From: Candidatus Dojkabacteria bacterium
GTDB taxonomy: Bacteria > Patescibacteriota > Dojkabacteria > B142 > JAFGFJ01
Assembly (NCBI GenBank): GCA_016931155.1
Contig: JAFGFJ010000006.1
Coordinates: 314,896 to 378,895 of the forward strand
DNA: 64,000 bases
Reading direction: 5' to 3'
Of this stretch, positions 7,513-56,149 are shown in pieces (positions within the stretch are counted from its first letter, which is position 1; each line of letters begins with the position of its first letter). Position numbers and translations under genes: made by a program. The notes under the pieces are model-generated. The model had not been told where the DNA came from. It ran no database searches and saw nothing but the letters and a program-made list of their open reading frames with translations.

Positions 7513-8082
7513 ATGAAAAAAACTTTAATTACAGAAAAAAAAGAGATGACGAGCCTATTCGATGGAGATGGGAAGTTTGTATCTGTTACTGTACTTGAGG
7601 TAGGGGATAATGTTGTTTTTGGGACAAGAATTGAAGAAAAGGATGGTTATAGTGCTTTTATTATTAAAGATGAGAAATCTGGATTGGTAAAAGAGGTGAG
7701 AGTGGAAAGTGATGAGGAAGTAAAGGATATGAAGGTGGGGGATAAATTGGAGATAGACTTTAGTGAGGGAGATACGGTTTCTGCAACGGGAGTAACAAAA
7801 GGAAAAGGTTTTCAAGGAGTAGTCAAAAGATGGGGATTTAAGGGTGGACCAAAAACTCATGGACAATCAGATAGACAAAGACATCCTGGCTCTATTGGAG
7901 GTGGGACTACGCCGGGAAGAGTTTATAAAGGGAAGAAAATGGCGGGAAGGATGGGTGCAGTTACAAGAACGATCAGAGGATTGAGGATTATAAAAATAGA
8001 TAAGGAGAACAATTTAATAGCGGTAAAAGGTGCGATACCTGGAGGTAAAGGCGGATTGGTTTTGCTTAAGTCGACCAAATAA
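7513..8082 (+). CDS. rplC: 50S ribosomal protein L3
   Basis: Homology by eye to L3 (KGKGFQGVVKRWGF...HGQSDRQRHPGSIG). Confidence 0.92.
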   Translation: MKKTLITEKKEMTSLFDGDGKFVSVTVLEVGDNVVFGTRIEEKDGYSAFIIKDEKSGLVKEVRVESDEEVKDMKVGDKLEIDFSEGDTVSATGVTKGKGFQGVVKRWGFKGGPKTHGQSDRQRHPGSIGGGTTPGRVYKGKKMAGRMGAVTRTIRGLRIIKIDKENNLIAVKGAIPGGKGGLVLLKSTK

Positions 8083-8084
8083 CA

Positions 8085-8609
8085 ATGAAAGCTTTGAAAT
8101 TAGTGCCCTATTTGGTACTTGTTTCTCTCATATCAGTAGGAGTGTACTTACTGATAGGAATAACAAATCAGGAGAAATTGCAAAGTTATTCTGACTTTAT
8201 TGAAACAAGTAGTGGCAAAGTACTTGAAGGGATAAACAAACAGAGTGAACAGATAAACAGAATTGGAAATATTTCGGATATTGAAGAAGGAGTAATAACG
8301 GATAATGAGGATATTTCAAGTAAGTTTAAGACTTTACTTGAAGCAGAAAAAAAAGCCTGGCAGGAATTAAAAAAGCCTGAAGGGTCTAAGGAAACTCAGA
8401 AACAAATGGAAGAGTTTTTTAAGGGTGCAGAAGAAAGCAATAAGCAGTTTGATGAGGCAATGATGGAAATAAAAATACTGAAAAAAGAAGATGAGCTTCT
8501 AAGTACAATTAAGGGCTACAATGAGAAAGTAACAAAATTTGCAGAAACATACGAAGAGCTTATTGAAAACTTAAATAATTATATTGATGAAAGTAACTTT
8601 ATACGATAA
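8085..8609 (+). CDS. Hypothetical membrane-anchored coiled-coil protein inserted between rplC and rplD
   Basis: 174-aa ORF starting 3 nt after the L3 stop and overlapping the L4 start by 26 nt. It has an N-terminal TM helix followed by a K/E-rich, coiled-coil-like region; no family recognised. Confidence 0.55.
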   Translation: MKALKLVPYLVLVSLISVGVYLLIGITNQEKLQSYSDFIETSSGKVLEGINKQSEQINRIGNISDIEEGVITDNEDISSKFKTLLEAEKKAWQELKKPEGSKETQKQMEEFFKGAEESNKQFDEAMMEIKILKKEDELLSTIKGYNEKVTKFAETYEELIENLNNYIDESNFIR

Positions 8610-9402
8610 AACAGGAAAAAAGACTGAGAAAAAGATTGAGCTTGACTCTGCGATTTTTGGGGCAAAGGTTAATAAAAAACTATTAAGCCAGGCTGTCTAT
8701 ATATATCTTTCAAATCAAAGGACAGCCAATCCCCAGACTAAAGACAGGGGTGAAGTTAGTGGTGGAGGAAGAAAGCCATGGAAGCAGAAAGGGACGGGAA
8801 GAGCCAGACACGGTTCAACAAGAAGTCCGATCTGGAGAGGAGGAGGAGTTACTTTTGGTCCCACAAATCAAAAGAATTATAAAAAGACTATGCTTAAGAA
8901 AATGAAAAGAGCGGCAATTAGGTCAGCTTTTAGTTATCAGACTGAAGAGAAAAAAGTGTTGGTAATGGAAAAACCCGATTTCAAAGAAGGAGCACTTACA
9001 AAACAAGTCTTGAAAATTTTAAATAATTTGAGAATTGATAAGAAAGTGTTGTTTGTTCAGGGAGATATTGACCAAAACTTTGTTAAAGCAGTGAGTAATC
9101 TCAAAACTGTTTTGGTAAAACCGGTAAACGAACTTAACACTTATTCAGTATTAAATACACAATGGCTGATTTTTACAGATGAAAGTTTGGGAAAGGTTAG
9201 CGAGTTTTGGGGAGCAGAAAAAGGAAAAACTTTAAATACAGAGAAAGGGGAAGAGAAGAAGCTCAGCTCTGTTCAAAGAGATTTAGTAAAAAAGGAAACA
9301 AAAAGAGTCAAGGATGAGAGTGAGAAAAAGCCTTTGAAAAAGGTTGCAAAAAAATCGACTATAAAGAAAGTTAAAATAATAAAATCAAAAACAAAGAAAT
9401 AA
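8584..9402 (+). CDS. rplD: 50S ribosomal protein L4 with Lys-rich C-terminal extension
   Basis: GGGRKPWKQKGTGRARHGS motif; ~65-aa basic tail. Confidence 0.92.
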   Translation: MMKVTLYDKTGKKTEKKIELDSAIFGAKVNKKLLSQAVYIYLSNQRTANPQTKDRGEVSGGGRKPWKQKGTGRARHGSTRSPIWRGGGVTFGPTNQKNYKKTMLKKMKRAAIRSAFSYQTEEKKVLVMEKPDFKEGALTKQVLKILNNLRIDKKVLFVQGDIDQNFVKAVSNLKTVLVKPVNELNTYSVLNTQWLIFTDESLGKVSEFWGAEKGKTLNTEKGEEKKLSSVQRDLVKKETKRVKDESEKKPLKKVAKKSTIKKVKIIKSKTKK

Positions 9403-12042: not shown

Positions 12043-12464
12043 TGTTGCAGCCTAAAAAAACAAAATATAGAAAACAGTTCAGAGGAAAGAGAGGGGGTAC
12101 GGTAGTAAAAAAAGGTGCTTTTATTACTATGGGTGATTATGCACTTCAGGCTATTGAGAGATCCTGGATAACAGAAAGGCAGATTGAATCTGCTAGAAAG
12201 GCAATTGTTAGGGAAACGAAAAGAAAAGGTAAGTTGTGGCTAAAGATCTTCCCAGACAAACCTTACACAGGAAAACCGGCGGAAACCAGAATGGGAAAGG
12301 GTAAGGGGGACGTTGTTGGATATGTCTCAGTAGTTAAGCCAGGCAGGGTACTGTTTGAGCTGGGTGGGGTTACTGAAGAAACTGCAAGAGAAGCGTTTAG
12401 GGTAGCTGGTCATAAGTTACCTATTAAGACTCAGTTTGTAACCAGAATACAACAAACAAGATAA
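12042..12464 (+). CDS. rplP: 50S ribosomal protein L16
   Basis: [19 protein letters not shown]... canonical L16 start. Confidence 0.95.
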
Positions 12465-12465
12465 A

Positions 12466-12753
12466 ATGAAACCAAACGAACTTAGAAAATTTAGTAAAAA
12501 GGAGCTTGAGGAAAGGTTGGTTAAAAAAGCTGAAGAATTAGAGAGCAAGAAGTTTGAAGTCAGGATGAAAAAAGATAATGATTATGCAAGCTTGAAATTT
12601 TTGAAAAAAGAATTGGCAAGAATAAATACAATTATAAAGGCAGGTTCGTTTGCCATTGATGATATAAAGGATAAGGTGGAAAAGAAGACTGTGAAGAAAG
12701 AAACGAAGAAAAAAAACAGTATTGTGAGGAAGGATAAAGAACCTGATAAGTAA
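12466..12753 (+). CDS. rpmC: 50S ribosomal protein L29 with C-terminal extension
   Basis: MKPNELRKFSKKELEERLVKKAEEL... L29 family; ~30-aa extra tail. Confidence 0.85.
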   Translation: MKPNELRKFSKKELEERLVKKAEELESKKFEVRMKKDNDYASLKFLKKELARINTIIKAGSFAIDDIKDKVEKKTVKKETKKKNSIVRKDKEPDK

Positions 12754-12782
12754 TCAGTAAATAAATATTTTTAATATAAGAA

Positions 12783-13094
12783 ATGGCAACAAAAGCAGAA
12801 AAAATAACAAAGAAGTTAAAAACAAAGAGAGTTGAGAAATCTCAGCAGAAGATAGCAAGAATAAAAACAGGAATAGTAGTAGGCAATAAGGCACAAAAGA
12901 CCTTGAGAGTGAGGGTTGAAAGGAAATTCTCTCACCCTTTGTATACGAAGATTGTAAAGAGGCACAAAAATTATCTTGTTCACAGTAATGAGCAGGTTGA
13001 GGTTGGTAAAATAATAAGATTCAAAGAGGTTAAGCCCATCTCAAAAGCAAAGAAATGGGTACTAATTGATGTATTAGAAAAGAAACAAATATGA
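12783..13094 (+). CDS. rpsQ: 30S ribosomal protein S17
   Basis: [41 protein letters not shown]17 signature. Confidence 0.93.
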
Positions 13095-25399: not shown

Positions 25400-26095
25400 A
25401 TGAAAAAAATTACGGTTATTATATTCGCTGGAATTGTCCTTCTAGGGCTTGCTGTTTGGTCACCATGGAACAGGCTGGATTTCTCTTGGCAAAGACTTCT
25501 GGGAATTGAAAAGCCGGAAGGTATGGCAGGGCTTACAGTCTATTCACTTGGGGGGAATATGGAGGTAAAAATAGATGGAGAGTTGAAGGGAGAAGTAAAT
25601 CTTGCCAATTCTCCTCTTGAAATACACGATGTTGTTCCTGGTGAGCATAAAATTGAGTTAATTAGAAAAGGTTCACAGGATAACATTTATGCCGAGTATT
25701 TTAAAAATTTAAATTTTGAGGGTAACATAAATTCAATACTAAGTTATGAGCTTGGACCAACAGAAGAGTATAGTTCGGGCTATGTATTTTATGCTGTATC
25801 CAAAGGGAATTATGATGCTCTTGCTAGTTTGTCTGTGGTATCAAGACCTGAGCAGGCAAAGATCTTTCTAGATGGAATAGATGTGGGAAATGCTCCTTTA
25901 AGAGATGTAAAAATTTCTCTCAATCAATTACATAGGCTCAGGTTTGAGAAGGAGGGATTTGAATCACTTGAATTTGAAATTTTACCAAAGGAACAGGCAG
26001 ATCGAGATAAGCTTAAAGATTATAGTCTGGCAGTTGAGGCTCGACTGTTTAAGCTTCCAATAAATATAGTAGAGGAAGTATCAAATGAGAAATGA
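25400..26095 (+). CDS. Membrane-anchored PEGA-domain protein (two PEGA-like repeats)
   Basis: N-terminal TM; repeats such as VYSLGGNMEVKIDGELKGE and VSRPEQAKIFLDGIDVGNAPL resemble PEGA beta-sandwich modules. Confidence 0.5.
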   Translation: MKKITVIIFAGIVLLGLAVWSPWNRLDFSWQRLLGIEKPEGMAGLTVYSLGGNMEVKIDGELKGEVNLANSPLEIHDVVPGEHKIELIRKGSQDNIYAEYFKNLNFEGNINSILSYELGPTEEYSSGYVFYAVSKGNYDALASLSVVSRPEQAKIFLDGIDVGNAPLRDVKISLNQLHRLRFEKEGFESLEFEILPKEQADRDKLKDYSLAVEARLFKLPINIVEEVSNEK

Positions 26096-29000
26096 AGCTA
26101 ATAAGCTAAAAAGTACGAGTAAATACCCAACCTCAATAATTGTTAAGGGTGTTGATACCATTGGTGTAGAGCTTGCAGGTTCACTTATTGAACAGGGGGG
26201 GTATGTAATTATGATAGACACCTACAATGAGGAATCTTTCGGGAAAATAAAACATCTGTTGGAAAAAGATCTGTTTACATTTGTTGATTTTTCAGCTCTT
26301 TCTCATCTGGAAGATGATTTGAGGAGATTGGATTATGTTTTTTTTCTGGGACATCAGGAGACTGACATCGAAAATGAAATTTCTACTCAAGAATTTCTCG
26401 AAGTATCAAATTACTTGAATGCGATTCTTGACCTTTCAACTAAATTTGAAGCTAAATTCTTATTAACAAATTCGATAAGAGCACATAGGAGACTGATAGG
26501 AGAGCAGGACGTTCATCTCAATTTTGATCTAGAAAAGACTAAAAAACACACGGTATATTCAGAAGTTGAAATTCAAAGATATGCAGAAAGTTTGGTGATG
26601 GAGTACTACGAGAAGGTTTCTTTGAATGTAAGAATTTTGAGAATGGGAGAAGTAATTGGTGAGGCTGTTGAGTTTAAAGAAAAGACTCCTCTTGGAAAGC
26701 TTATATTTGATGCAATATCAGGAAATGACCTAGAGATAACTGGTGATGGTCTTGATGAAGAGTATTATGTTCATTATCTTGATGCTGTTTACGGATTATT
26801 GAAGGGTGAATTTACTCCAAATACTAAGGGGAAGATTTTTTCGTTGGCAAATCAAGAGCCGGTTACTACATTATCTTTAGCGTATAAGGTTCAGGAATTA
26901 GAGCCAAAGGCTGGAGAAATAAAATTTGTAGAAAAAAAAGGTCCACTGTCACTCAAACTATACAAGCCAGCTGAAAACCTGGCAGTTATCGGCTGGAGGC
27001 CAAAAGTATCTTTTGACAGAGCCCTGTCACAGTCTATTGAACAAGCATATAACCACTTTAGTATCGAATCTTCTAGTCAGGTGGAAGATGTAAGGGATGA
27101 AAAAAAGAATGATGTGCTTTCCAAAAAACTTAAAAACTTCTTTTTTATCTCAGACAATAACGGAGAAAAGGAGGATACATATAAGCCAAAAGGAGAAGGC
27201 TATGGTGCTCTTTCGAGACTTATTGCAGAAAGAAAATCTCAGGAAATGGGAAGAAAAGGTAGCATTGTTCTGGCAAATGACAAACTAAGAGAAAAGGTCA
27301 AGGGTCAAAATCAGAAACCTGCTATTCAAAGATTGGGTACTAAAGCAAATAAGTTTTATGACAGAATTAAGGTTCAGTTTAATTTCCTTACTAGATTGAC
27401 TCTTAGTGAATTTGCTCTCTATTTGTTTCTTGTAATGATTTTGGCAGTGGTATATTTCGGAGTAGTATCTCCATTACTTAGTCTTGGTAAAGATGTGTAT
27501 TTTGGGAACAGAAATCTTGAAGAAGCAAAAAATAGATTTATTAGTAATGACATAATTGGTGCTAGGGAATCTGCCAAGAGTTCTCTCAATAACTTTGATG
27601 CTGCAGAGAAAACACTAAACAGATTTGAAGCATTTTTTAATCTTGTTTCCCAGAAAGAAGTATTCATTTCAGGGACTACTCTCCTGAGAGGAGCAAAAAT
27701 GTACTCTGAAGGTCTTGAACAATCATTCTCAGCTGTCTCTCCAGCGTACGAGTATTTCGAGAAGTTTGAAGATAATGTCTATTACAGACCGAATGACGGG
27801 AATCTTCTTGTTTCTGAGTCCAGTGCCGATTATTCAGAGTATCTTCAGAAGATGTCAGGAATGGAGATAGTAGCAGATGATGGGATCAGCAAAATAGTAT
27901 CAGCAACAGCTCTTATGTCAACTGCAAGAAAGAACTATTTACCTAAAACAGTAATAGAAAAAATAAATTCTATTGTAAATAATATTGATGAGACTGAGGC
28001 TGAGCTTCAAAGTGCAAAAAAAACGATTAGATATTTACCTGATCTACTGGGAGGAGATGGCCCAAAATCTTACATTATTATTCTCCAGGATAACTCAAGA
28101 TATAACCCTTCAGGAGGCAAAATCAATTCATATGCTTTCTTAACATTTGAAAAAGGTGGTTTAAAATCTATTAAGGTTGAAAATGCATCCAGCCTAAACC
28201 TGTCATTTGATAGGTTGAATCCAAAAACACTTGACCAGATCAATCTGATTTCGTTTCAGAATCTAAAAGTAGAGGACGTAACTCTCAGTGATTTTCAGCT
28301 CATAAATGATTTTGATCTGTTTAGCAGTGAAATTATTCCTTACCTTGAAAATTATTTTGAGAGGGATATTGATGGCGCCATATTTTTAAATATTAACAGT
28401 CTTGAAAAATTAATTGAATTGTATGGCGGAATTGAAGTCGAGCAAATTGAATTTGACGGGAAAAATCTTCTGATGAATGTTGATCTGGTTCTAAGAGACA
28501 ATAGGGAGGAAAATAGAAGAACAGAGATTATTACTCAGGTATTTGCGCTTGTGCTTCAGAAAATATTCACTTCAACAGGAGAAAAAACGCTGGAACTTGC
28601 TTCTCTTTCAAATGTTCAGCTGGAAGTAAAGGATATGATGCTTCAGTTCGAGGGTGAATATTATCAGGAGCAGATTGAAACAAATAATTGGAATGGGAGG
28701 TTTAACAACAACTCAGATTTTATTAAGATTGCAGTGGTTTCAAAGGCAAGGGAATTTTCTCAAACAAAATATCCTAACTTAAATATTGATATAAATGATA
28801 GGTTGAAGTCTGACTTAACAACTGTTAAACAAGTTACAATTGAACCTAAAAGTCTTGAAGATCTTGATTATGTGACTGTATGCCTTCCTGCTGGAGCTAC
28901 AGAATTAAATTTTGGTGAAATTAATCCTTTACTGTACAACCAGAATTTTAGTGCTGGAAATGAGTGTGTGAGTATAAAATTTGGTCAAATAAGCAGGGCT

Positions 29001-29234
29001 GTGATATCATACAAGACCCCAGCTTTTGAAAGTGTAAGGGGCAATAGTTACAATTACAACGTAAGTATCCAAAATACTCCTGGACTCAATCTGATTTATG
29101 ATTATGAGTTGGAATTTGATCCGGGTTTGTACCCTCTTGAGTATGACGATAGAGGATTCCTCCAAAGAGATAAGCTGATATATGCAGGTACTCTTGATGG
29201 AAATTTAATTTTGAATTTAAAATTCGGAAGATGA
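26085..29234 (+). CDS. Large single-pass membrane protein: N-terminal degenerate NAD-epimerase/SDR-like Rossmann domain, TM helix, ~600-aa extracellular domain (DUF4012-like by recall)
   Basis: The N-terminus shows epimerase-like blocks (ITGDGLDEEYYVHYLDAVYGLL) but lacks an intact GxxGxxG and a YxxxK lysine. TM at about aa 435-460. The ectodomain motif LLGGDGPKSYIIILQDNSRYNPSGG resembles DUF4012, from memory only. Confidence 0.5.
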   Translation: MRNEANKLKSTSKYPTSIIVKGVDTIGVELAGSLIEQGGYVIMIDTYNEESFGKIKHLLEKDLFTFVDFSALSHLEDDLRRLDYVFFLGHQETDIENEISTQEFLEVSNYLNAILDLSTKFEAKFLLTNSIRAHRRLIGEQDVHLNFDLEKTKKHTVYSEVEIQRYAESLVMEYYEKVSLNVRILRMGEVIGEAVEFKEKTPLGKLIFDAISGNDLEITGDGLDEEYYVHYLDAVYGLLKGEFTPNTKGKIFSLANQEPVTTLSLAYKVQELEPKAGEIKFVEKKGPLSLKLYKPAENLAVIGWRPKVSFDRALSQSIEQAYNHFSIESSSQVEDVRDEKKNDVLSKKLKNFFFISDNNGEKEDTYKPKGEGYGALSRLIAERKSQEMGRKGSIVLANDKLREKVKGQNQKPAIQRLGTKANKFYDRIKVQFNFLTRLTLSEFALYLFLVMILAVVYFGVVSPLLSLGKDVYFGNRNLEEAKNRFISNDIIGARESAKSSLNNFDAAEKTLNRFEAFFNLVSQKEVFISGTTLLRGAKMYSEGLEQSFSAVSPAYEYFEKFEDNVYYRPNDGNLLVSESSADYSEYLQKMSGMEIVADDGISKIVSATALMSTARKNYLPKTVIEKINSIVNNIDETEAELQSAKKTIRYLPDLLGGDGPKSYIIILQDNSRYNPSGGKINSYAFLTFEKGGLKSIKVENASSLNLSFDRLNPKTLDQINLISFQNLKVEDVTLSDFQLINDFDLFSSEIIPYLENYFERDIDGAIFLNINSLEKLIELYGGIEVEQIEFDGKNLLMNVDLVLRDNREENRRTEIITQVFALVLQKIFTSTGEKTLELASLSNVQLEVKDMMLQFEGEYYQEQIETNNWNGRFNNNSDFIKIAVVSKAREFSQTKYPNLNIDINDRLKSDLTTVKQVTIEPKSLEDLDYVTVCLPAGATELNFGEINPLLYNQNFSAGNECVSIKFGQISRAVISYKTPAFESVRGNSYNYNVSIQNTPGLNLIYDYELEFDPGLYPLEYDDRGFLQRDKLIYAGTLDGNLILNLKFGR

Positions 29235-29695
29235 AACATAAGACTGTAATAACGAAAGAAGGTTTAAAGGATTTGAAAAATGAGCTTGATACCAGGAAGG
29301 ATAAGTTGAAAGAGATTGCTGATAAAATTGATGAGGCACGTCAGCAGGGAGACCTTTCTGAGAATGCTGCTTATACTACGGCTCTTTCAGAGAAAGAAAT
29401 GAATGAGGCGAAAATTAAGGAACTGGAAGATAAAATAAGTGGCTCGATAGTAGTTGAAGCTGATCCTTTAAATCCAGAAGTTGAACTTGGCGAGAAGGTT
29501 CTGGTGCGGCGGAGTTCTGATAACAAAAGGTTAACATATGAAATTGTTGGGATTGAAGAATCCAATCCGAGTGAAGGGAAAATATCTATAGGCTCTCCTA
29601 TTGGCAAGGCTTTGGCACATAAGAAGAAGGGAGATAAAGTAAAAGTTAAACTGCCATCTGGAGAGGAGGAGTTTTTAATTGAGGAAATTGCATAA
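29231..29695 (+). CDS. greA: Transcription elongation factor GreA
   Basis: N-terminal coiled coil with GDLSENAAY acidic tip motif and C-terminal FKBP-like domain. Confidence 0.88.
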   Translation: MKHKTVITKEGLKDLKNELDTRKDKLKEIADKIDEARQQGDLSENAAYTTALSEKEMNEAKIKELEDKISGSIVVEADPLNPEVELGEKVLVRRSSDNKRLTYEIVGIEESNPSEGKISIGSPIGKALAHKKKGDKVKVKLPSGEEEFLIEEIA

Positions 29696-29715: not shown

Positions 29716-30981
29716 ATGGAAAGACATTCAGTGCCCCAAAATATTATGGATGTCGAGTTCAAGCTTTTTGGAAGCCTGACCGTAAGACAGTTCGCTAACC
29801 TTGCAGGATCTATTGTCGTTGCGGTTATTTTATATTTTTTTAATATTCCCGGAATTATCAAATGGCCAGCAATCGTCGGTTTTGTTTTCTTGGGCATAAG
29901 TTTGGCACTGGTTAAGATAAATGGTCAAACATTTGGTACTTGGCTTGGCAATTTTCTGGCTTCTATGTTTAGTTCCCAGAGGAAAATATGGAAGAAAGAT
30001 CCGAAAGTTCCTGAGATACTTACAAAGACTTACCGTCCACGAGTAAGTAATGAACAGCTTGTTTCTGCGAAGAAAAAAGAGTTACCTCCTTTTCTACGTG
30101 AGGATATAATTCAATCTACAAACGTAGTAGATGAAGAGGAGGAAGAGCGGCTAAAGAAATTAGAAAAATACATTCTTGGTGGTACCTCTTCAACGATAAG
30201 TGAGCAATTAATTTCAGACGAAGAAAAAGCACAACGACCGGTAATAATTGATCCTTCAGATCAAAATCTTGCTGGCACAATGAATACGGCAAATGAGGAT
30301 AATTATTCTATAAATCAGTCGGACGAATTCGCAGTAATTGGAAAGAAGATGGCTAATCAGAGAGAGCGACCGATAAGCTCAAGACTTGTGCATAAGAACC
30401 TTGCGGAAAACATAGGAATTGCTGTAAGTGAAGATACTAAAGAGTCCGGTTTGGGCAAGGAAAAAGAAAAAAAGTCAGAAATAGGTTATCTTTCTGAGAA
30501 ACCTGTTAATGATATGAACAGAGGATTAGATGTGAAAAGGAGTTCTTCCGACGAATTGATAGAGGCTAATAAAATACTGCAGGAAAGGATACAGGAACTT
30601 ACAGAAAAAGCGAAAAAATCTCCTGATGACTCTCAGATAGCTCAAAAACTTGCAGAGATGGAAAAACGTCTGGTGGAAATTCAGTCGGGAGGTTCGTTCG
30701 CTAATGAAAAAATAGTATCTCAAAAACCAAATGTTATTAGTGGTATAGTAACTGATAAAGAAAATAAATTACTTCCTGATGTTAGGGTGTTGATTAAGGA
30801 CAGAAGGGGTTTTTTGGTTAGATCACTGATTACTGATAAGCAAGGTTACTTTGTTACGACAACTTCACTTCCTGACGGCGATTATTTAGTTGAATTTGAA
30901 AGCGATAGACATCCTTTTGACCAGTATAAAGTTAACCTGAACGGGTCTTTGAAAGATACGTATAAATTTACTGCCAGATGA
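29716..30981 (+). CDS. PrgI/VirB3-like membrane protein fused to a long coiled-coil and a C-terminal CarboxypepD_reg-like beta-sandwich domain
   Basis: N-terminal FKLFGSLTVRQFANL plus two TM helices resembles the PrgI family, which sits upstream of VirB4 in Gram-positive T4SS. The C-terminal ISGIVTDKENKLLPDVRVLIKDRRGFLVRSLITDKQGYFVTTTSLPDGDYLVEFE resembles the CarboxypepD_reg fold. Confidence 0.5.
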   Translation: MERHSVPQNIMDVEFKLFGSLTVRQFANLAGSIVVAVILYFFNIPGIIKWPAIVGFVFLGISLALVKINGQTFGTWLGNFLASMFSSQRKIWKKDPKVPEILTKTYRPRVSNEQLVSAKKKELPPFLREDIIQSTNVVDEEEEERLKKLEKYILGGTSSTISEQLISDEEKAQRPVIIDPSDQNLAGTMNTANEDNYSINQSDEFAVIGKKMANQRERPISSRLVHKNLAENIGIAVSEDTKESGLGKEKEKKSEIGYLSEKPVNDMNRGLDVKRSSSDELIEANKILQERIQELTEKAKKSPDDSQIAQKLAEMEKRLVEIQSGGSFANEKIVSQKPNVISGIVTDKENKLLPDVRVLIKDRRGFLVRSLITDKQGYFVTTTSLPDGDYLVEFESDRHPFDQYKVNLNGSLKDTYKFTAR

Positions 30982-31000: not shown

Positions 31001-31684
31001 ATGGCGTTTTTAGGAAGAAAAGAAACAACAACTCAGGAACATCTTGATATTGAGGATGTCAGAGATGATCTTGTTGTGTTAAAAAATGGTAACGTTTCTC
31101 TTGTTATGGAGACGACTTCTTTGAACTTTGATCTTCTTTCGGAAGAGGAACAGGATATACGAATTCTTGCCTTTGCAGGGCTTATGAACTCATTGAATTT
31201 CCCTGTACAGATAGTTGTTAGAACAGAAAGAACAGACGTAACTGATTATGTAGATAAGCTAAAGATCTATAAGGAAAAACAGATTTCGTTGGCCTTAAAA
31301 AGACAAATAGAGATTTACATGCAATTTATTAAGAATCTTACTGTGAACACCGAGGTTCTTGATAAAAGATTCTTTGTTGTTATACCAGGAATAATATCAA
31401 GTATACAAAGAACTAGTGCTGTGAGACAGATCTTCGGTAAACCAGTAAAAATTAAAAATATCGAGGAGGTGCTTGAAAAAGCCAAATTACTTCTTTATCC
31501 AAAACGTGATCATCTGCTGAAGCAGTTTCAAAAAATGGGGATAATTGCAGAGCAACTAAAAACTGATGATTTAATACGTTTGTATTACGGTATTTATCAA
31601 CCGGATACTCCTGGAATTAAGAAATTAATTTTGAAAAAACAGGATTTTTCTACTGGGATTGTAGAAACTTTAAAAGAAGAATAA
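31001..31684 (+). CDS. VirB4/TraC-family T4SS ATPase, N-terminal domain fragment (separate ORF)
   Basis: HLDIEDVRDDLVVLKNGNVSLVMETTSLNFDLLSEEEQDIRILAF matches the N-terminal block of Gram-positive VirB4 homologues (Tn916 Orf16/TcpF type). Confidence 0.6.
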   Translation: MAFLGRKETTTQEHLDIEDVRDDLVVLKNGNVSLVMETTSLNFDLLSEEEQDIRILAFAGLMNSLNFPVQIVVRTERTDVTDYVDKLKIYKEKQISLALKRQIEIYMQFIKNLTVNTEVLDKRFFVVIPGIISSIQRTSAVRQIFGKPVKIKNIEEVLEKAKLLLYPKRDHLLKQFQKMGIIAEQLKTDDLIRLYYGIYQPDTPGIKKLILKKQDFSTGIVETLKEE

Positions 31685-31688
31685 CAAT

Positions 31689-33635
31689 ATGTGGATATTT
31701 GGAAAAAGCAAAAAAGAAAAGGAAAAAGAGAAGGAACAGACAAGTCAGTCAGAGGATCTTGAAGAGAAGGCAATTGAAAAATTCGCTGAGGGATTGATTG
31801 ATGTAAAAGATCTGATAGCTCCGTCAGCGATGGAGGTGGATTTTAACGATGTTCTTGTAGGAAATAAGTACTTTAGAACTTTCCTTGCTACTGGATTTCC
31901 AAGCCATGTCGGACCAAATTGGCTTTCTCCACTTATCAATTTTGACTTTCCTGTAGATATAAGCACGTTTTATTATCCTGTGGATAGTTCAATGATAATG
32001 CAAAGACTCAAACGAAAGATTGGAGAAATGGAGGCAACAATCAGTCTTGATCTTGAAGCAGGAAAAGTGGTTGATCCATATGTTAAGGTTGCACTTGAAG
32101 ATGCAAAGAATTTACAGGAACAAATAGCAAAAGGTACAGAGAAATTTTTTCACTTTGCTCTTTATGTAACTATTCGAGCAGGCAGTATCAGGGAGCTTGA
32201 AAAAATCTCGAAGAATCTTATTTCAACAATGTCTTCTATTAGTGTGATTCTAAAGGTGGCTACTTTGCAGCAGGAACAAGGTTTTCAGAGTGTTGTACCT
32301 GTAGGAATAGACAAGATCTATATGACCAGAAATATGGATACGACCTCTTTGGCGACCACATTCCCATTCGTTAGCTCAGAGCTTACTATGGATACTGGTA
32401 TTTTGTACGGAATAAATAAACACAATAGAAGTCTTGTGATTTTTGACAGGTTTGAACTTGAAAATGCTAATGCAGTTGTTTTTGCAACTTCCGGGGCGGG
32501 AAAAAGTTATATGGTAAAGCTTGAGGCTATGAGAAGTCTTATGTTCGGGACTGAAATACTGATAATTGATCCCGAAAGAGAATATGAGAAGCTAACGAAA
32601 ACAATTGGAGGAGAATACGTATCGTTTTCGCAAGATGGCGCGCAAAAATTGAATCCATTTGAGCTTTCAGGAATTTATGACAAAGATGAAGACGAGCTAA
32701 GAATGAAAATTCTATCACTTCACGGCCTTATGAGGATTATGATGGGTGGAGATTTTTCTCCGGAAGAATCTGCAATACTTGATAGGGCACTTATTTTGAC
32801 GTATAAAGAAAAAGGCATTACGGTTGATCCTGTCACACACAAAAAAGAACCACCTCTTCTTGAGGATTTATATAAGATTCTCCAGGCAATGGCAGAGCCT
32901 CAAGCTCATAATCTTGCGACAAGACTTGAGAGGTTTGTAAGAGGAAGTGCAGCTGGTATTTTTGACAGAAAATCAAATATTGAGATTAAGAATACATTTA
33001 CTGTTTTTAGTATTCGAGAGTTGAGTGATGACCTAAGGCCTATAGCAATGTATATGATGCTTGATTTTATTTGGACAAGAGTGAAAAGACTTCGAAAGAA
33101 AAGACTTCTAATAGTGGATGAGGCATGGTGGATGATGCAGTATCCAGATGCAGCAAAATTTATCCACTCAATGGCAAAAAGAGCCAGAAAGTACGGTCTT
33201 GGGCTTACTACAATTACTCAAGATGTTGAGGACTTTTTGAGTACGGATTACGGGAAAGCTGTTGTTACAAATTCATCAATACAAATATTAATGAAGCAAA
33301 GTCCTGTAGCTATAGATAAGATTCAGAAGATATTCTATTTGTCTCAAGGTGAGAAGAACTATCTACTTTCAGCAGGTATTGGGGAAGGTCTATTCTTTGC
33401 CGGATCAAATCATGTGGCAATTCAGGTAATTGCGAGTGAAAATGAGCATAATCTAATAACTACATCTTATAAAGATATGGAGAAAGAGGAGAAGAAAAAA
33501 GCGGCATTGGCAGAAGAAGCTGTAAAAAATGCCGGAATTGGTATTGCAGATATTCCTGAAAATACAAACCAGCAAGTTTCCCCTACTGATAATATTAATT
33601 CCTATACTGGTAATACTTCTTCCAATGCGGTATAA
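31689..33635 (+). CDS. VirB4-like T4SS ATPase, central + C-terminal ATPase domains
   Basis: YFRTFLATGFPSHVGPNWLSPL middle-domain block; Walker A FATSGAGKSY; Walker B LLIVDEAWWMM. Confidence 0.8.
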   Translation: MWIFGKSKKEKEKEKEQTSQSEDLEEKAIEKFAEGLIDVKDLIAPSAMEVDFNDVLVGNKYFRTFLATGFPSHVGPNWLSPLINFDFPVDISTFYYPVDSSMIMQRLKRKIGEMEATISLDLEAGKVVDPYVKVALEDAKNLQEQIAKGTEKFFHFALYVTIRAGSIRELEKISKNLISTMSSISVILKVATLQQEQGFQSVVPVGIDKIYMTRNMDTTSLATTFPFVSSELTMDTGILYGINKHNRSLVIFDRFELENANAVVFATSGAGKSYMVKLEAMRSLMFGTEILIIDPEREYEKLTKTIGGEYVSFSQDGAQKLNPFELSGIYDKDEDELRMKILSLHGLMRIMMGGDFSPEESAILDRALILTYKEKGITVDPVTHKKEPPLLEDLYKILQAMAEPQAHNLATRLERFVRGSAAGIFDRKSNIEIKNTFTVFSIRELSDDLRPIAMYMMLDFIWTRVKRLRKKRLLIVDEAWWMMQYPDAAKFIHSMAKRARKYGLGLTTITQDVEDFLSTDYGKAVVTNSSIQILMKQSPVAIDKIQKIFYLSQGEKNYLLSAGIGEGLFFAGSNHVAIQVIASENEHNLITTSYKDMEKEEKKKAALAEEAVKNAGIGIADIPENTNQQVSPTDNINSYTGNTSSNAV

Positions 33636-33643
33636 ATAAAAAG

Positions 33644-34204
33644 ATGTTTCCACTAGATATTTTTACAAAACAATTCAACCTGAGTGGGCTAGTACTTATA
33701 GCCTCTGTTGCTATTTTTTCTTTGGCAGTAATTATTCTTTTGGTGAATGTTGTTATATTAAACAGGAAGCTAAAAAAAGCTACTACACCGACGTATGGTT
33801 TTGCAGGAAAGCCAATATATCCCATTATTGCAACATTGCTAATATCTGTATCTATACCTCTAGCTGTATATTCTTTATCTCAGGAGACTACTTTTGAACA
33901 AAAAGCAGAAGAAAATGTGATTCTACAGAGTAGTCATTATGTGGTATCAAGAGATGGGGAGAATTTACGGCTTGAGTTTAATGTTGTTCCATATGTAGAT
34001 GGGGTAGCTTGGGGAGAAAAGTCGTTTGATATTTTCTGGTCATTTAAGGGAAAAACATCCAAAACTAGCTATGAGTTTAATAAATCTGCGATTAATCCCA
34101 GTAAAATGACAATTACTTTGCCAAAAGGTGAGTATGATCTTACTATTCTTGTTACTTATGAGAATAGATCTCAGAGGTTAGAACAAAAGCTTGTTCTAAA
34201 ATAA
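33644..34204 (+). CDS. Hypothetical membrane protein (2 TM + ~100-aa extracytoplasmic domain) downstream of VirB4
   Basis: Hydrophobic segments at aa 15-40 and 60-80; no recognised family. Confidence 0.5.
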   Translation: MFPLDIFTKQFNLSGLVLIASVAIFSLAVIILLVNVVILNRKLKKATTPTYGFAGKPIYPIIATLLISVSIPLAVYSLSQETTFEQKAEENVILQSSHYVVSRDGENLRLEFNVVPYVDGVAWGEKSFDIFWSFKGKTSKTSYEFNKSAINPSKMTITLPKGEYDLTILVTYENRSQRLEQKLVLK

Positions 34205-34233
34205 TTCTTGTTTGTGCGTGCTATAATTATTTC

Positions 34234-34626
34234 GGTCTAGTCAGAACGGTCGCTAAGCGTGAGCTTAGAGGAAAGTCCGAACTCCTCTTGGCACAATAGT
34301 CAGGACAAGGTACCTTGGAGACAAGGCAGGGAGTGATCTCTGGGATTAGAGCAACAGAAAGTAAGGAGCCTGCGAATTGCAGGCGATCTTGAAAGGGTGC
34401 CTCCGGGTTTTTCTGGGGGGCGTACATGAAATTTCATGTATGACGTGTAAGAGACCACCGGTCACGATAGTAATATCGAGATGCTGGTAATCCCTATCGG
34501 GAGCAAGATCAAAGTGTAGATCGCAAAGTGTTTGTTCTTTTGATTAATCAGAACAAATACTGCTAGAGAAATGACCGTCATTCTGGTGTTGCCAGAAAGA
34601 ACAGAATTCGGCTTATTGACTAGACC
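34234..34626 (+). ncRNA. rnpB: RNase P RNA, bacterial type (M1 RNA)
   Basis: GAGGAAAGTCCGAACTCC (P4 5' strand) and ACAGAATTCGGCTTA (P4 3' strand) covary with the E. coli GGG/CCC pair. The P1 helix GGTCTAGTCA...TGACTAGACC closes the ~393-nt molecule. The ORF-track ORF 34227-34427 (-) is spurious. Confidence 0.85.
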
Positions 34627-34734
34627 ATTTTTTCAACCACTTCAGGAGTATTTCCATTTGGGTGCATAATACTTCCTGTATAGAAACCATTATTTCTTGA
34701 AAATTTCAATTTACAGTGGGAACACATAGATACA

Positions 34735-54240: not shown

Positions 54241-54312
54241 TGAGTAGCTATCTCCGAAGCACTTCAAGTCTCTGTGCATGAGTAGCTCTTCCCGCAGCAC
54301 TTCAAATTCCTG
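54241..54312. repeat. Imperfect 34-bp tandem direct repeat spanning the 3' end/stop codon of the downstream hypothetical gene
   Basis: tgagtagctatctccgaagcacttcaagtctctg followed by tgagtagctcttcccgcagcacttcaaattcctg. The second copy encodes the C-terminal ...LKCCGKSYSC; the first lies just beyond the stop. Confidence 0.7.
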
Positions 54313-55538
54313 TCGTAAGTAGACGGGTCACCGTTCTTTACGTATTTTAAGACCTTTCCGCAGATGTCACATCTCACCGGGTCGGGTCTGTCAGGGGTTG
54401 GTTGAGGTTCAAACCCCGGATTCAATATCGAGTTTACTCTTCCGAATGTGCTGAACTTTTCCGATATACCGCAGGCGCTCATCACATAACCTTCTTGTCT
54501 CATAAGTCTGGCTTGAGCATATCTATCCATTTTTTGAAAATCTGAGAAACCTCCATCTTGATCGTAATTAATCCCTGTTTCTAGCTTCATTACATCATGT
54601 ATATATTTTCTAAATCCGAACTGCAGGACTGCCATTGTTTCATTGATGAAGGAAAGTTCTTTAGAAATATTTTCCCCTTTATTCAATTTTGCGGCCGTCG
54701 CCGTAATCAATGTTCTAAATTCCTCCCTGACTCTTTCCCAAACAAACGTCTTTGCATAAGCCTCAATTAATCTAATTTTCATTTCTTCGAGACCTTTTGT
54801 TCTTTGTTCTATAAAATCGGTTATGATTCTGAGTTTGTTGTCATCAAAGAAGCCTGATGATGCCATTATGCTTAAATCTGAAAGATTATTGCTGTCTGTA
54901 TTAATTGCCAATTCATTCAGTAGTTCCTCATAATCAAGAGTCGAAGTTGCGGGTAGCCATTTTTGTATAACTTTCTCGGTACCATTTTCATTTATAAATA
55001 AAAAGATGGTGTCGTTCCCCAGATAACCTCTTTTTTTTGCTTCTTCGGTAAGTGGCGGGCTTGGGCTGAATTCTACAAAATTTCTTTTATCTCCCATCTG
55101 TCTTGCTCTTCTGAGTTTTTCATAATTGCTCAGATTTATTGTGTTTCTTAAGATTTCAAATTCAGGAATTTGCCCGCTCGCATTATTTATTGCTTCTCTA
55201 TAGATTTCGTCAAGTGTTCTGTTTCCTGTTGCGAGCTTCCACGGTAAATTGCTCTTATCCCAAGGGAGGCTGTATTCATATATTGCAGTAGTTTCTGCGA
55301 TGGGATGCTCAACGATCTGGGTGTATATGTCGGTAAGGCTTTCTGTCAATGCAATGTTCAACAATGCCTCCCTTTCCTCTCCTCCAGCAGATTGGATAGC
55401 TTTTAGAGCCTGAAGTACATAGTTTATTGAGTTTGAGTATCTGTTTGAATACTGCGCCCTGATAGAATCCATACTTAAATCTGCTTTATTGATCGCAAAT
55501 CTCGACGGTTGTATTTCCTGTATGGCTGTTTCGCTCAT
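54264..55538 (-). CDS. Hypothetical cytoplasmic protein with C-terminal Cys cluster (CDICGKV...CCGKSYSC)
   Basis: 424-aa ORF, no recognised family. Confidence 0.5.
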   Translation of the reverse strand: MSETAIQEIQPSRFAINKADLSMDSIRAQYSNRYSNSINYVLQALKAIQSAGGEEREALLNIALTESLTDIYTQIVEHPIAETTAIYEYSLPWDKSNLPWKLATGNRTLDEIYREAINNASGQIPEFEILRNTINLSNYEKLRRARQMGDKRNFVEFSPSPPLTEEAKKRGYLGNDTIFLFINENGTEKVIQKWLPATSTLDYEELLNELAINTDSNNLSDLSIMASSGFFDDNKLRIITDFIEQRTKGLEEMKIRLIEAYAKTFVWERVREEFRTLITATAAKLNKGENISKELSFINETMAVLQFGFRKYIHDVMKLETGINYDQDGGFSDFQKMDRYAQARLMRQEGYVMSACGISEKFSTFGRVNSILNPGFEPQPTPDRPDPVRCDICGKVLKYVKNGDPSTYDRNLKCCGKSYSCTET

Positions 55539-56149
55539 TTCATTTCAGAAACGAGCAGTGTTGAAGAATTAATTTTCATGGCTTTCTGCTCGGAAAGATA
55601 AAATAATCTTGGCTGGTTTTCTGGCTTTTCCAGTGATGGAATTACAGTTGCGGCACAGCAGCGGTATTTCACCGCTTTTCCCATTTAATCCCGAAAAGAG
55701 AACCTGAAATATACTAGAGTAAAAATTATAATTTTGCAAGAAGTGTAGGTCTGATGTATTTGATGTACAACTTCAAGACCTATGTAGCAACTGAGACTCT
55801 ACGGGCTGTACAGGTTCATGAACATATGCAACAGCCATAGTAGAATACGTTGATGTTTCAAATTATTAATGATTCAAACAAAACGGTTGTTGTATAACGA
55901 GTTTAATCTTTAATATGTTTCATCACACGATAGAGAAGGCGAGTAAAATCAGCTTATTTTTTTCATTAACTGTAGAGACTCTTACAGAGAGCCAAGGATA
56001 AACTAGATGCTTGTTATGTATTATATGTAAGACAAGCAAACTCTCAATGAAGGAAGTAGTAGAGACCACGGCTAAGTTTTGCTCATCATTATTGTTGATC
56101 TTTTGCCAAATGAATTGTACTCTGTATTAGTCAGATTCCTGCCCTAATT

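Follow-up and report, generated by a model that had tools for sequence, protein, structure and literature searches.

A PrgI/VirB3-family protein with a predicted cytoplasmic, beta-sandwich-bearing extension in a chromosomal type IV secretion gene cluster of a Candidatus Dojkabacteria bacterium

The window analysed here is a stretch of 64,000 nucleotides from a Candidatus Dojkabacteria bacterium (assembly GCA_016931155.1, contig JAFGFJ010000006.1, positions 314,896 to 378,895 of the forward strand). An open reading frame (ORF) on its plus strand, 29716..30981, starts with ATG and encodes a protein of 421 amino acids (aa), here called PrgI-ext. The ORF lies exactly where it was placed by the original prediction, a reading of the same DNA made earlier from the sequence alone. 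The protein consists of a PrgI/VirB3-type membrane domain, a variable tether, a short alpha-helical hairpin and a C-terminal beta-sandwich, and its gene lies immediately upstream of trsD and virB4. On balance we favour the reading that PrgI-ext is the VirB3 (PrgI-family) subunit of a chromosomal Patescibacteria type IV secretion system (T4SS), with a predicted cytoplasmic extension that carries a docking or regulatory head. The parts of the protein, with the evidence for each in brackets, are as follows (AF2, AlphaFold2 model; pLDDT, its per-residue confidence score; TM1 and TM2, transmembrane (TM) helices).

29716..30981, + strand: PrgI-ext, VirB3/PrgI-family protein with a C-terminal extension, 421 aa (ORF; Pfam; homologues)
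29716..30000, + strand: PrgI/VirB3 domain, aa 1-95 (Pfam, aa 6-90; AF2 pLDDT 77-97; conservation)
29782-29838, + strand: TM1, aa 23-41 (within the PrgI/VirB3 domain)
29851-29910, + strand: TM2, aa 46-65 (within the PrgI/VirB3 domain)
30001..30537, + strand: variable, mostly disordered K/E/Q/P/S-rich tether, aa 96-274 (AF2 pLDDT <60 over most of it; poor conservation; composition)
30088-30180, + strand: conserved acidic amphipathic helix, aa 125-155 (AF2 pLDDT 68-86; motif counts)
30538..30684, + strand: alpha-helical hairpin, aa 275-301 and 306-323, the "coiled coil" of the original prediction (AF2 pLDDT ~88)
30721..30978, + strand: transthyretin-like/CarboxypepD_reg beta-sandwich, aa 336-421 (Pfam E 3.5e-7; AF2; Foldseek against PDB entries 3mn8, 8bdw, 3e8v and 10ps)

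A search of 5.8 billion proteins with PrgI-ext returned 146 homologues, the closest non-identical one at 63% identity (E 4.5e-163), so that PrgI-ext is not a chance ORF. The start codon is confirmed by the conserved N-terminus, MERHSVPQNIMDVEF. The unusual length for a PrgI protein, and nothing more, speaks for an artefact, either a mis-called ORF or a fusion made in assembly between a short prgI and an unrelated downstream gene. That explanation was rejected, and its chance is negligible, because the same pairing of N-domain and C-domain recurs in hundreds of independent assemblies (NCBI, JGI, ENA and Logan) and an identical copy of the protein lies on an independent Logan contig (P0001). A sequence search of PDB with PrgI-ext gave no VirB3 structure, the only match being a weak one to SdrD (E 0.011).

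Residues 6-90 matched the Pfam family PrgI (PF12666) over profile positions 2-88 of 91, with 41.2 bits against a gathering cut-off of 27; a PrgI-family hidden Markov model match at the N-terminus had been set beforehand as a test of the original prediction. The domain has a conserved N-terminal motif, HxVPQNIMDVEFKLFG, and a basic RKIWKK. The hydropathy profile has one hydrophobic hairpin, roughly residues 23-65, and no hydrophobic stretch past residue 70. In the AF2 model, which was built on a 51-sequence alignment, the domain consists of helices at 10-19, 23-41, 46-65 and 73-85, the last three with pLDDT above 90. Together the two methods give two TM helices followed by a short C-terminal helix, as expected for the PrgI/VirB3 family, and the PrgI-like TM hairpin proposed originally is borne out. 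The protein departs from the small size of that family (10-15 kDa, with short cytoplasmic extensions) in having 421 aa and a C-terminal extension of 330 aa.

The extension ends in a seven-strand beta-sandwich, as in solved members of its fold (the Foldseek matches include 5aq0), modelled at pLDDT ~97 over residues 342-421. In Pfam the CarboxypepD_reg family (PF13620) matched residues 341-398 with 30.9 bits (E 3.5e-7), just below the cut-off of 32.3. With Foldseek against PDB the head matched the transthyretin-like domain of carboxypeptidase D (3mn8, E 2.4e-5); other matches were CnaB2 (8bdw), a Bacteroides fragment (3e8v, TM-score to target 0.76), SdrD-B and Gram-positive pilins. The terminal Ig-like or CarboxypepD_reg-like domain of the original prediction is therefore confirmed as a fold by AF2 and Foldseek, with a PF13620 score just under the cut-off. 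Comparison of the head sequence with three proteins encoded nearby, a PEGA-domain protein, a DUF4012 protein and p186 (listed below), gave no similarity. Separately, a 247-aa BFVD protein labelled "uncultured Caudovirales phage" (A0A6J5RTX8) aligned structurally over the full length of the query (321 columns, E 2.9e-7), and may be a PrgI-like plus beta-sandwich protein on a contig labelled as phage, or on a mis-binned contig from the candidate phyla radiation (CPR).

Membrane domain and head are joined by a spacer (residues ~91-335) which AF2 models mostly at low confidence or as disordered, with pLDDT below 50 over 158-193, 215-221 and 234-275. Helices occur only at 125-155, 275-301 and 306-323, the last two forming a short hairpin; together they account for ~76 of ~245 residues, the rest being of low confidence. 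A coiled-coil stalk of ~300 aa, as first proposed, was therefore an overstatement: there is no long continuous coiled coil, and on the AF2 model the spacer looks like a flexible tether rather than a stalk. The acidic region noted after the hairpin is present, as the patch VVDEEEEER at residues 137-145. Spacer length is very variable among homologues, whose total length ranges from 93 to 776 aa, and its sequence is unconserved save for one acidic amphipathic helix. The pattern of that helix, [DE]xx[DE]xxxPhixxPhixxxPhi (Phi, a hydrophobic residue), lies at about residues 134-152 and was found in 110 of 216 homologues against 15 of 216 shuffled controls. The window copy, DEEEEERLKKLEKYIL, falls inside the AF2 helix 125-155.

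The helix sits ~60-90 residues past TM2, and the C-termini of several short CPR PrgI proteins (loci L055, L056, L057, L059 and L060) read ...LKKLAYILD. A strict regular expression for an LKKLAYILD-like motif matched almost none of the homologues; the looser acidic-amphipathic pattern was the significant one. The helix is common to VirB4-linked PrgI proteins with and without the beta-sandwich, which makes it a candidate partner-binding motif.

The combination of domains is not peculiar to this genome. Named relatives of PrgI-ext come from Dojkabacteria, WS6 or Patescibacteria, and nearly all of the 120 relatives listed (of 146) carry both PF12666 and PF13620, in proteins of 256-684 aa. An exhaustive HMMER search with residues 1-95 yielded 1596 clusters (50% identity) with E<=1e-3, of which 761 reached E<=1e-10, and the best 150 clusters were almost all of 250-780 aa. 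Among 109 diverse representatives, PrgI was matched in 109 and CarboxypepD_reg in 75 at E<=1e-3 (best 3.6e-13); the other matches were to further beta-sandwich families or to helical/coiled-coil families. Judged by these domain matches and lengths, fusion of PrgI to a beta-sandwich is the norm in the clade. The canonical PrgI length of ~100-120 aa from which the original prediction started holds for plasmid PrgI (117 aa, PMC12857230) and fails here, where the extended form is usual. Nine VirB4 loci from other CPR lineages, found in a metagenome scan with VirB4, have a short PrgI of 142-206 aa, and the short CPR PrgI next to TrsD-VirB4 has a C-terminal helix of the LKKLAYILD type and no sandwich. 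The essential PrgI of Southlakia epibionticum (SEML1_0010) has 300 aa, with a helical C-terminal extension.

PrgI-ext is encoded in a run of co-directional genes, from a PEGA-domain protein to p186, whose junctions overlap or measure 4-20 nt. The neighbours of prgI-ext are as follows.

25400-26095, + strand: PEGA-domain protein (Pfam; overlaps the next gene)
26085-29234, + strand: epimerase + TM + DUF4012 protein, 1049 aa (Pfam; overlaps the next gene)
29231-29695, + strand: GreA (Pfam; 20 nt before PrgI-ext)
31001..31684, + strand: TrsD-like protein, a free-standing VirB4 N-terminal domain, 227 aa (NCBIfam TrsD/TraD NF041427, E 4.6e-6; VirB4_plasma positions 103-233)
31689..33635, + strand: VirB4 ATPase of CD1110/MPF-FATA type, 648 aa (NCBIfam NF045971, 392 bits, cut-off 325; Pfam P-loop_TraG, AAA_10)
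33644..34204, + strand: p186, 186 aa, two TM, fast-evolving (ORF; homologue directly after VirB4 in 21 group A loci, the VirB4-linked ones)
34233-34631: RNase P RNA

The gaps are 19 nt between PrgI-ext and trsD, 4 nt between trsD and virB4, and 8 nt between virB4 and p186. The VirB4 to which the original prediction referred is present downstream, and carries a Walker A motif, SGAGKS, and a Walker B motif, LLIVDEAW. Homologues of TrsD match Pfam TraC-like, and TrsD always stands between PrgI and VirB4; as a side observation, one Dojkabacteria genome (L001) has a NUDIX-like gene, 12462-12995, inserted between an otherwise contiguous trsD and virB4. The order PEGA, DUF4012/epimerase, GreA, PrgI-ext, TrsD, VirB4, p186 was found in 24 of 49 genome loci, and in the distant lineage L004 the DUF4012 protein lies directly upstream of PrgI-ext-TrsD-VirB4. 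Scans for promoters and terminators inside the cluster gave no signal, terminator-like counts being at background and promoter-like counts modestly above those of shuffles.

The features of a Patescibacteria-type T4SS are all present: an MPF-FATA VirB4 with TrsD and PrgI, a chromosomal location, and no relaxase among the ORFs scanned. The cluster is a chromosomal, conjugation-derived T4SS of Patescibacteria. A coupling protein (T4CP), VirB6 and VirB8 were likewise absent from the 34 window ORFs scanned, and most Patescibacteria T4SS clusters are without these same four components (PMC12102498). The rest of the window is housekeeping in character: NusA, EF-G, a ribosomal protein operon (by synteny), SecA, sortase, GluRS, PFOR and others.

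Two of the flanking products may belong to the envelope. p186 matched no family in Pfam or NCBIfam, and a word-indexed homologue search with it returned the identical NCBI protein JW796_03255 alone. It has two TM segments, a basic loop between them, an acidic C-flank and a beta-rich C-terminal domain predicted to lie outside, and is a probable accessory envelope component. The 1049-aa protein carries an NAD-epimerase-like domain at its N-terminus, then a TM segment, and DUF4012 at its C-terminus. In ~24 genomes it is syntenic, together with the PEGA protein, with PrgI-TrsD-VirB4, and it could be an envelope component of this T4SS that has gone unrecognised.

The side of the membrane on which the extension lies decides much of its interpretation. 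No third hydrophobic segment was present in any of 308 homologues, four weak candidates being beta-strands of the sandwich. With only two TM helices the C-terminal module lies, therefore, on the same side as the N-terminus. The mean number of lysine and arginine residues was ~2.5 in the 25-residue N-tail, ~0.9 in the loop of ~6 residues and ~4.6 in the 30 residues after TM2, and a bias of at least 3 toward N-in/C-in was seen in all 240 of the 240 homologues that could be anchored. VirB3 itself is known to have two TM helices followed by a C-terminal helix, with both termini in the cytoplasm (reviewed in PMC12857230); in the cryo-EM structure of the R388 machine it is wrapped around the N-domain of VirB4, a cytoplasmic protein (PMC9259494), and VirB3 and VirB4 also occur as natural fusions according to work cited in PMC12102498. 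Across 17 genomes, and controlled for GreA, distances in the PrgI N-domain co-varied with those in TrsD (partial r 0.55) and VirB4 (0.65), compared to 0.22-0.27 for other neighbours. The two-helix topology, the charge bias, the known arrangement of VirB3 and the co-variation of the N-domain together make it probable that the whole tail is cytoplasmic, beside TrsD/VirB4. A cytoplasmic C-terminal region had been named beforehand as the result that would speak against an extracellular stalk or adhesin, and it is to the cytoplasm that the tail is now predicted to belong.

The stalk or adhesin of the original prediction would cross to the outside and span the wall on the VirB4 platform, which needs an N-out/C-out hairpin, and several observations weigh for it and against a cytoplasmic tail. 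A beta-sandwich fold of this kind is characteristic of surface proteins and pilins in Gram-positive bacteria, and most characterised members are extracellular (carboxypeptidase D, CnaB, SdrD, pilins), although Foldseek also found cytoplasmic examples, PucM/HIU hydrolase and dioxygenases. The tether resembles wall-spanning spacers in being long, of variable length and rich in E, K, P and S. The head is fast-evolving, with a mean pairwise distance of 0.69, compared to 0.71 for p186, 0.66 for DUF4012, 0.45 for TrsD and 0.31 for VirB4, and it co-varies somewhat better with p186 and DUF4012, whose domains face outside; its best value, a partial r of 0.40 with p186, is confounded by their similar fast rates. 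Finally, no VirB8-like wall component is recognisable among the scanned window ORFs (cf. PMC12102498). Nevertheless we consider an outside location unlikely. The uniform two-helix count and charge bias described above oppose it, and PrgI-ext lacks the marks of a surface protein, having two TM helices rather than an odd number and a C-terminus placed inside by the charge bias. An N-out orientation would put the most conserved motif of the family, which we infer to bind VirB4, outside, contradicting both the VirB3 topology and the R388 structure (PMC9259494, PMC12857230), and the helices add up to too little for a stalk of 300 aa. Were the head outside the cell after all, the accepted topology of VirB3 would be overturned. 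As a whole, the original interpretation stands as far as a two-TM PrgI/VirB3 protein with a beta-sandwich extension next to VirB4 is concerned, and is not supported as to the extracellular stalk or adhesin.

A different doubt comes from a sister family, group B, which occupied 25 of the 49 genome loci. Its proteins have 332-395 aa, with a tight length distribution, the N-terminus MEPHPVPQNIxDVEFKLFGxFTLKQF and the same C-terminal sandwich; AF2 gave a group B relative the hairpin, a disordered spacer, the alpha-hairpin (pLDDT ~90) and the sandwich (pLDDT ~97). The scan pattern matched 80 of 83 group B proteins and 105 of 223 others. The neighbours are housekeeping genes (ThrRS, L21, L27, SecG and a solute-binding protein), and no TrsD or VirB4 was present within +-8 kb of the gene in 25 genomes. 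Since no assembly had two loci among the 49, a genome carries one version or the other, never both; a comparison of longest-contig values between the group A and group B matches likewise gave no contig bearing the two. The group B loci are L005, L025, L027-L033, L035, L036, L038, L039, L041, L042, L044-L050 and L052-L054, with the gene at ~8001-9100 in most of them; at L036 a p186 homologue adjoins the group B gene without VirB4. This A/B dichotomy in Dojkabacteria is a natural experiment on whether the protein works without an adjacent VirB4.

That group B keeps the same architecture in such surroundings also tells against a T4SS role for PrgI-ext. The PrgI-like hairpin could be mainly a generic anchor, the alpha-hairpin and beta-sandwich doing a job independent of the T4SS, and the adjacency to VirB4 in the window could be historical. 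In keeping with this, the acidic amphipathic helix occurs in only 2 of 83 group B proteins, compared to 110 of 216 VirB4-linked versions. Against it, PrgI-ext is packed 19 nt upstream of trsD-virB4, 24 genomes as well as a distant lineage keep the gene order, and co-variation links the N-domain to TrsD and VirB4. The N-motif of group B, moreover, is almost unchanged from the VirB4 type and may serve a VirB4 encoded elsewhere. A T4SS-independent role is accordingly improbable in our view, and a T4SS subunit with a cytoplasmic extension remains the preferred reading of PrgI-ext.

As such a subunit, PrgI-ext would act as follows. Residues 1-90, comprising the amphipathic helix, the tight two-helix membrane hairpin and the short helix, would clamp the VirB4 ATPase to the cytoplasmic membrane, as suggested by homology with R388 TrwM/VirB3 and pCF10 PrgI, by the gene order and by co-variation. 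VirB4 is here split into TrsD and VirB4, both encoded immediately downstream, and the N-domain would anchor both. The remaining ~330 residues are a lineage-specific extension that would hang in the cytoplasm. Its head is most likely a tethered protein-docking or regulatory module, presumably present in six copies per machine as VirB3 is in R388. In clusters without a coupling protein, a relaxase or VirB8 it might bring a cytoplasmic partner to the ATPase platform, or regulate one. More speculatively, and with considerable doubt on our part, the head could be a cytoplasmic receptor that brings substrates, or an unanchored partner ATPase, to VirB4/TrsD and so replaces the coupling protein, the VirB8 tails or both; group B may then show this head put to use again once VirB4 had been lost or relocated.

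The PrgI-ext family is abundant, and the role of its head is a prediction. T4SSs are widespread in Patescibacteria, and in the one member tested the system is essential for epibiotic growth, while it lacks the customary coupling protein and relaxase. A VirB3 subunit whose conserved head is tethered, as predicted, next to the ATPase is a candidate, open to testing, for the recruiting or regulating element that CPR T4SSs lack.

Elsewhere in the window a cobalamin riboswitch (55594-55722, - strand, 60.1 bits, cut-off 31.5) is located immediately upstream of an ORF of 424 aa (54264-55538, - strand). The product is soluble, with no Pfam match, no TM segment and a Cys-rich C-terminus (CDICGK...CCGKSYSC); from the position of the riboswitch it is a putative B12-regulated gene in a reduced CPR genome. 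Positions 1-36000 show a strong positive GC skew (0.14-0.37) and an AT skew over the first ~35 kb, where nearly all genes are on the plus strand, and the sign flips at 36-40 kb, where genes change strand (SecA, sortase). The pattern looks like one of purine-rich coding strands, not an obvious replication signal.

Compared to known systems, PrgI-ext is a subunit of a familiar kind in a form not described before, rather than a novel type of system. Databases already annotate both its PrgI and its CarboxypepD_reg domain automatically; in the literature searched, no description was found that combines PrgI with a carboxypeptidase-regulatory-like domain. The PrgI-TrsD-VirB4 module of Patescibacteria was described in 2025 (Quinonero-Coronel et al., PMC12102498, the preprint of which lists Dojkabacteria), and the T4SS was found to be essential in Southlakia epibionticum (Wang et al. 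2023, PMC10633639). The systems in these papers have the same MPF-FATA VirB4, TrsD and PrgI, are chromosomal and lack a relaxase, and the PrgI of S. epibionticum is extended and essential. However, in neither paper is PrgI described as carrying a beta-sandwich, and in S. epibionticum the extension is helical. In contrast to those systems, the Dojkabacteria window shows neither a recognisable VirB6 nor an array of VirB2-like pilins; instead, a conserved PEGA, DUF4012-epimerase, GreA segment precedes the module and p186 follows it.

The plasmid systems are a step further removed. PrgI of Enterococcus pCF10 and TrwM of R388 share with PrgI-ext the amphipathic helix, the two-TM hairpin, the short C-terminal helix and a gene just upstream of virB4, and by analogy 1:1 binding to the VirB4 N-domain would be expected of PrgI-ext too. 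Unlike pCF10 PrgI, PrgI-ext has 421 aa rather than ~100-120, an extension of ~330 aa and a chromosomal setting among housekeeping genes, with neither a relaxase nor a coupling protein close by. The staphylococcal plasmids pGO1 and pSK41 (MPF-FATA, pGO1 subclass) have the same order of a VirB3-like protein, TrsD and VirB4 in TrsC-TrsD-TrsE; however, TrsC is short, and the plasmid system is conjugative, with a relaxase and T4CP. In VirB3-VirB4 fusions (eg in Campylobacter plasmids) a cytoplasmic polypeptide follows the VirB3 hairpin at its C-terminus, so that this end is cytoplasmic, but there the fused part is VirB4, whereas PrgI-ext carries a small tethered beta-sandwich and its VirB4 is separate. 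The head itself has the same fold as CarboxypepD_reg/transthyretin-like domains (PF13620; CnaB, SdrD-B, the SusC N-terminal extension), with Foldseek E values of 2e-5 to 1e-3 and TM-scores up to 0.76, and differs from PF13620 members in its score under the Pfam cut-off. Domains of that type are mostly extracellular or periplasmic spacers or docking modules, whereas the head of PrgI-ext trails a two-TM hairpin with a predicted cytoplasmic C-terminus.

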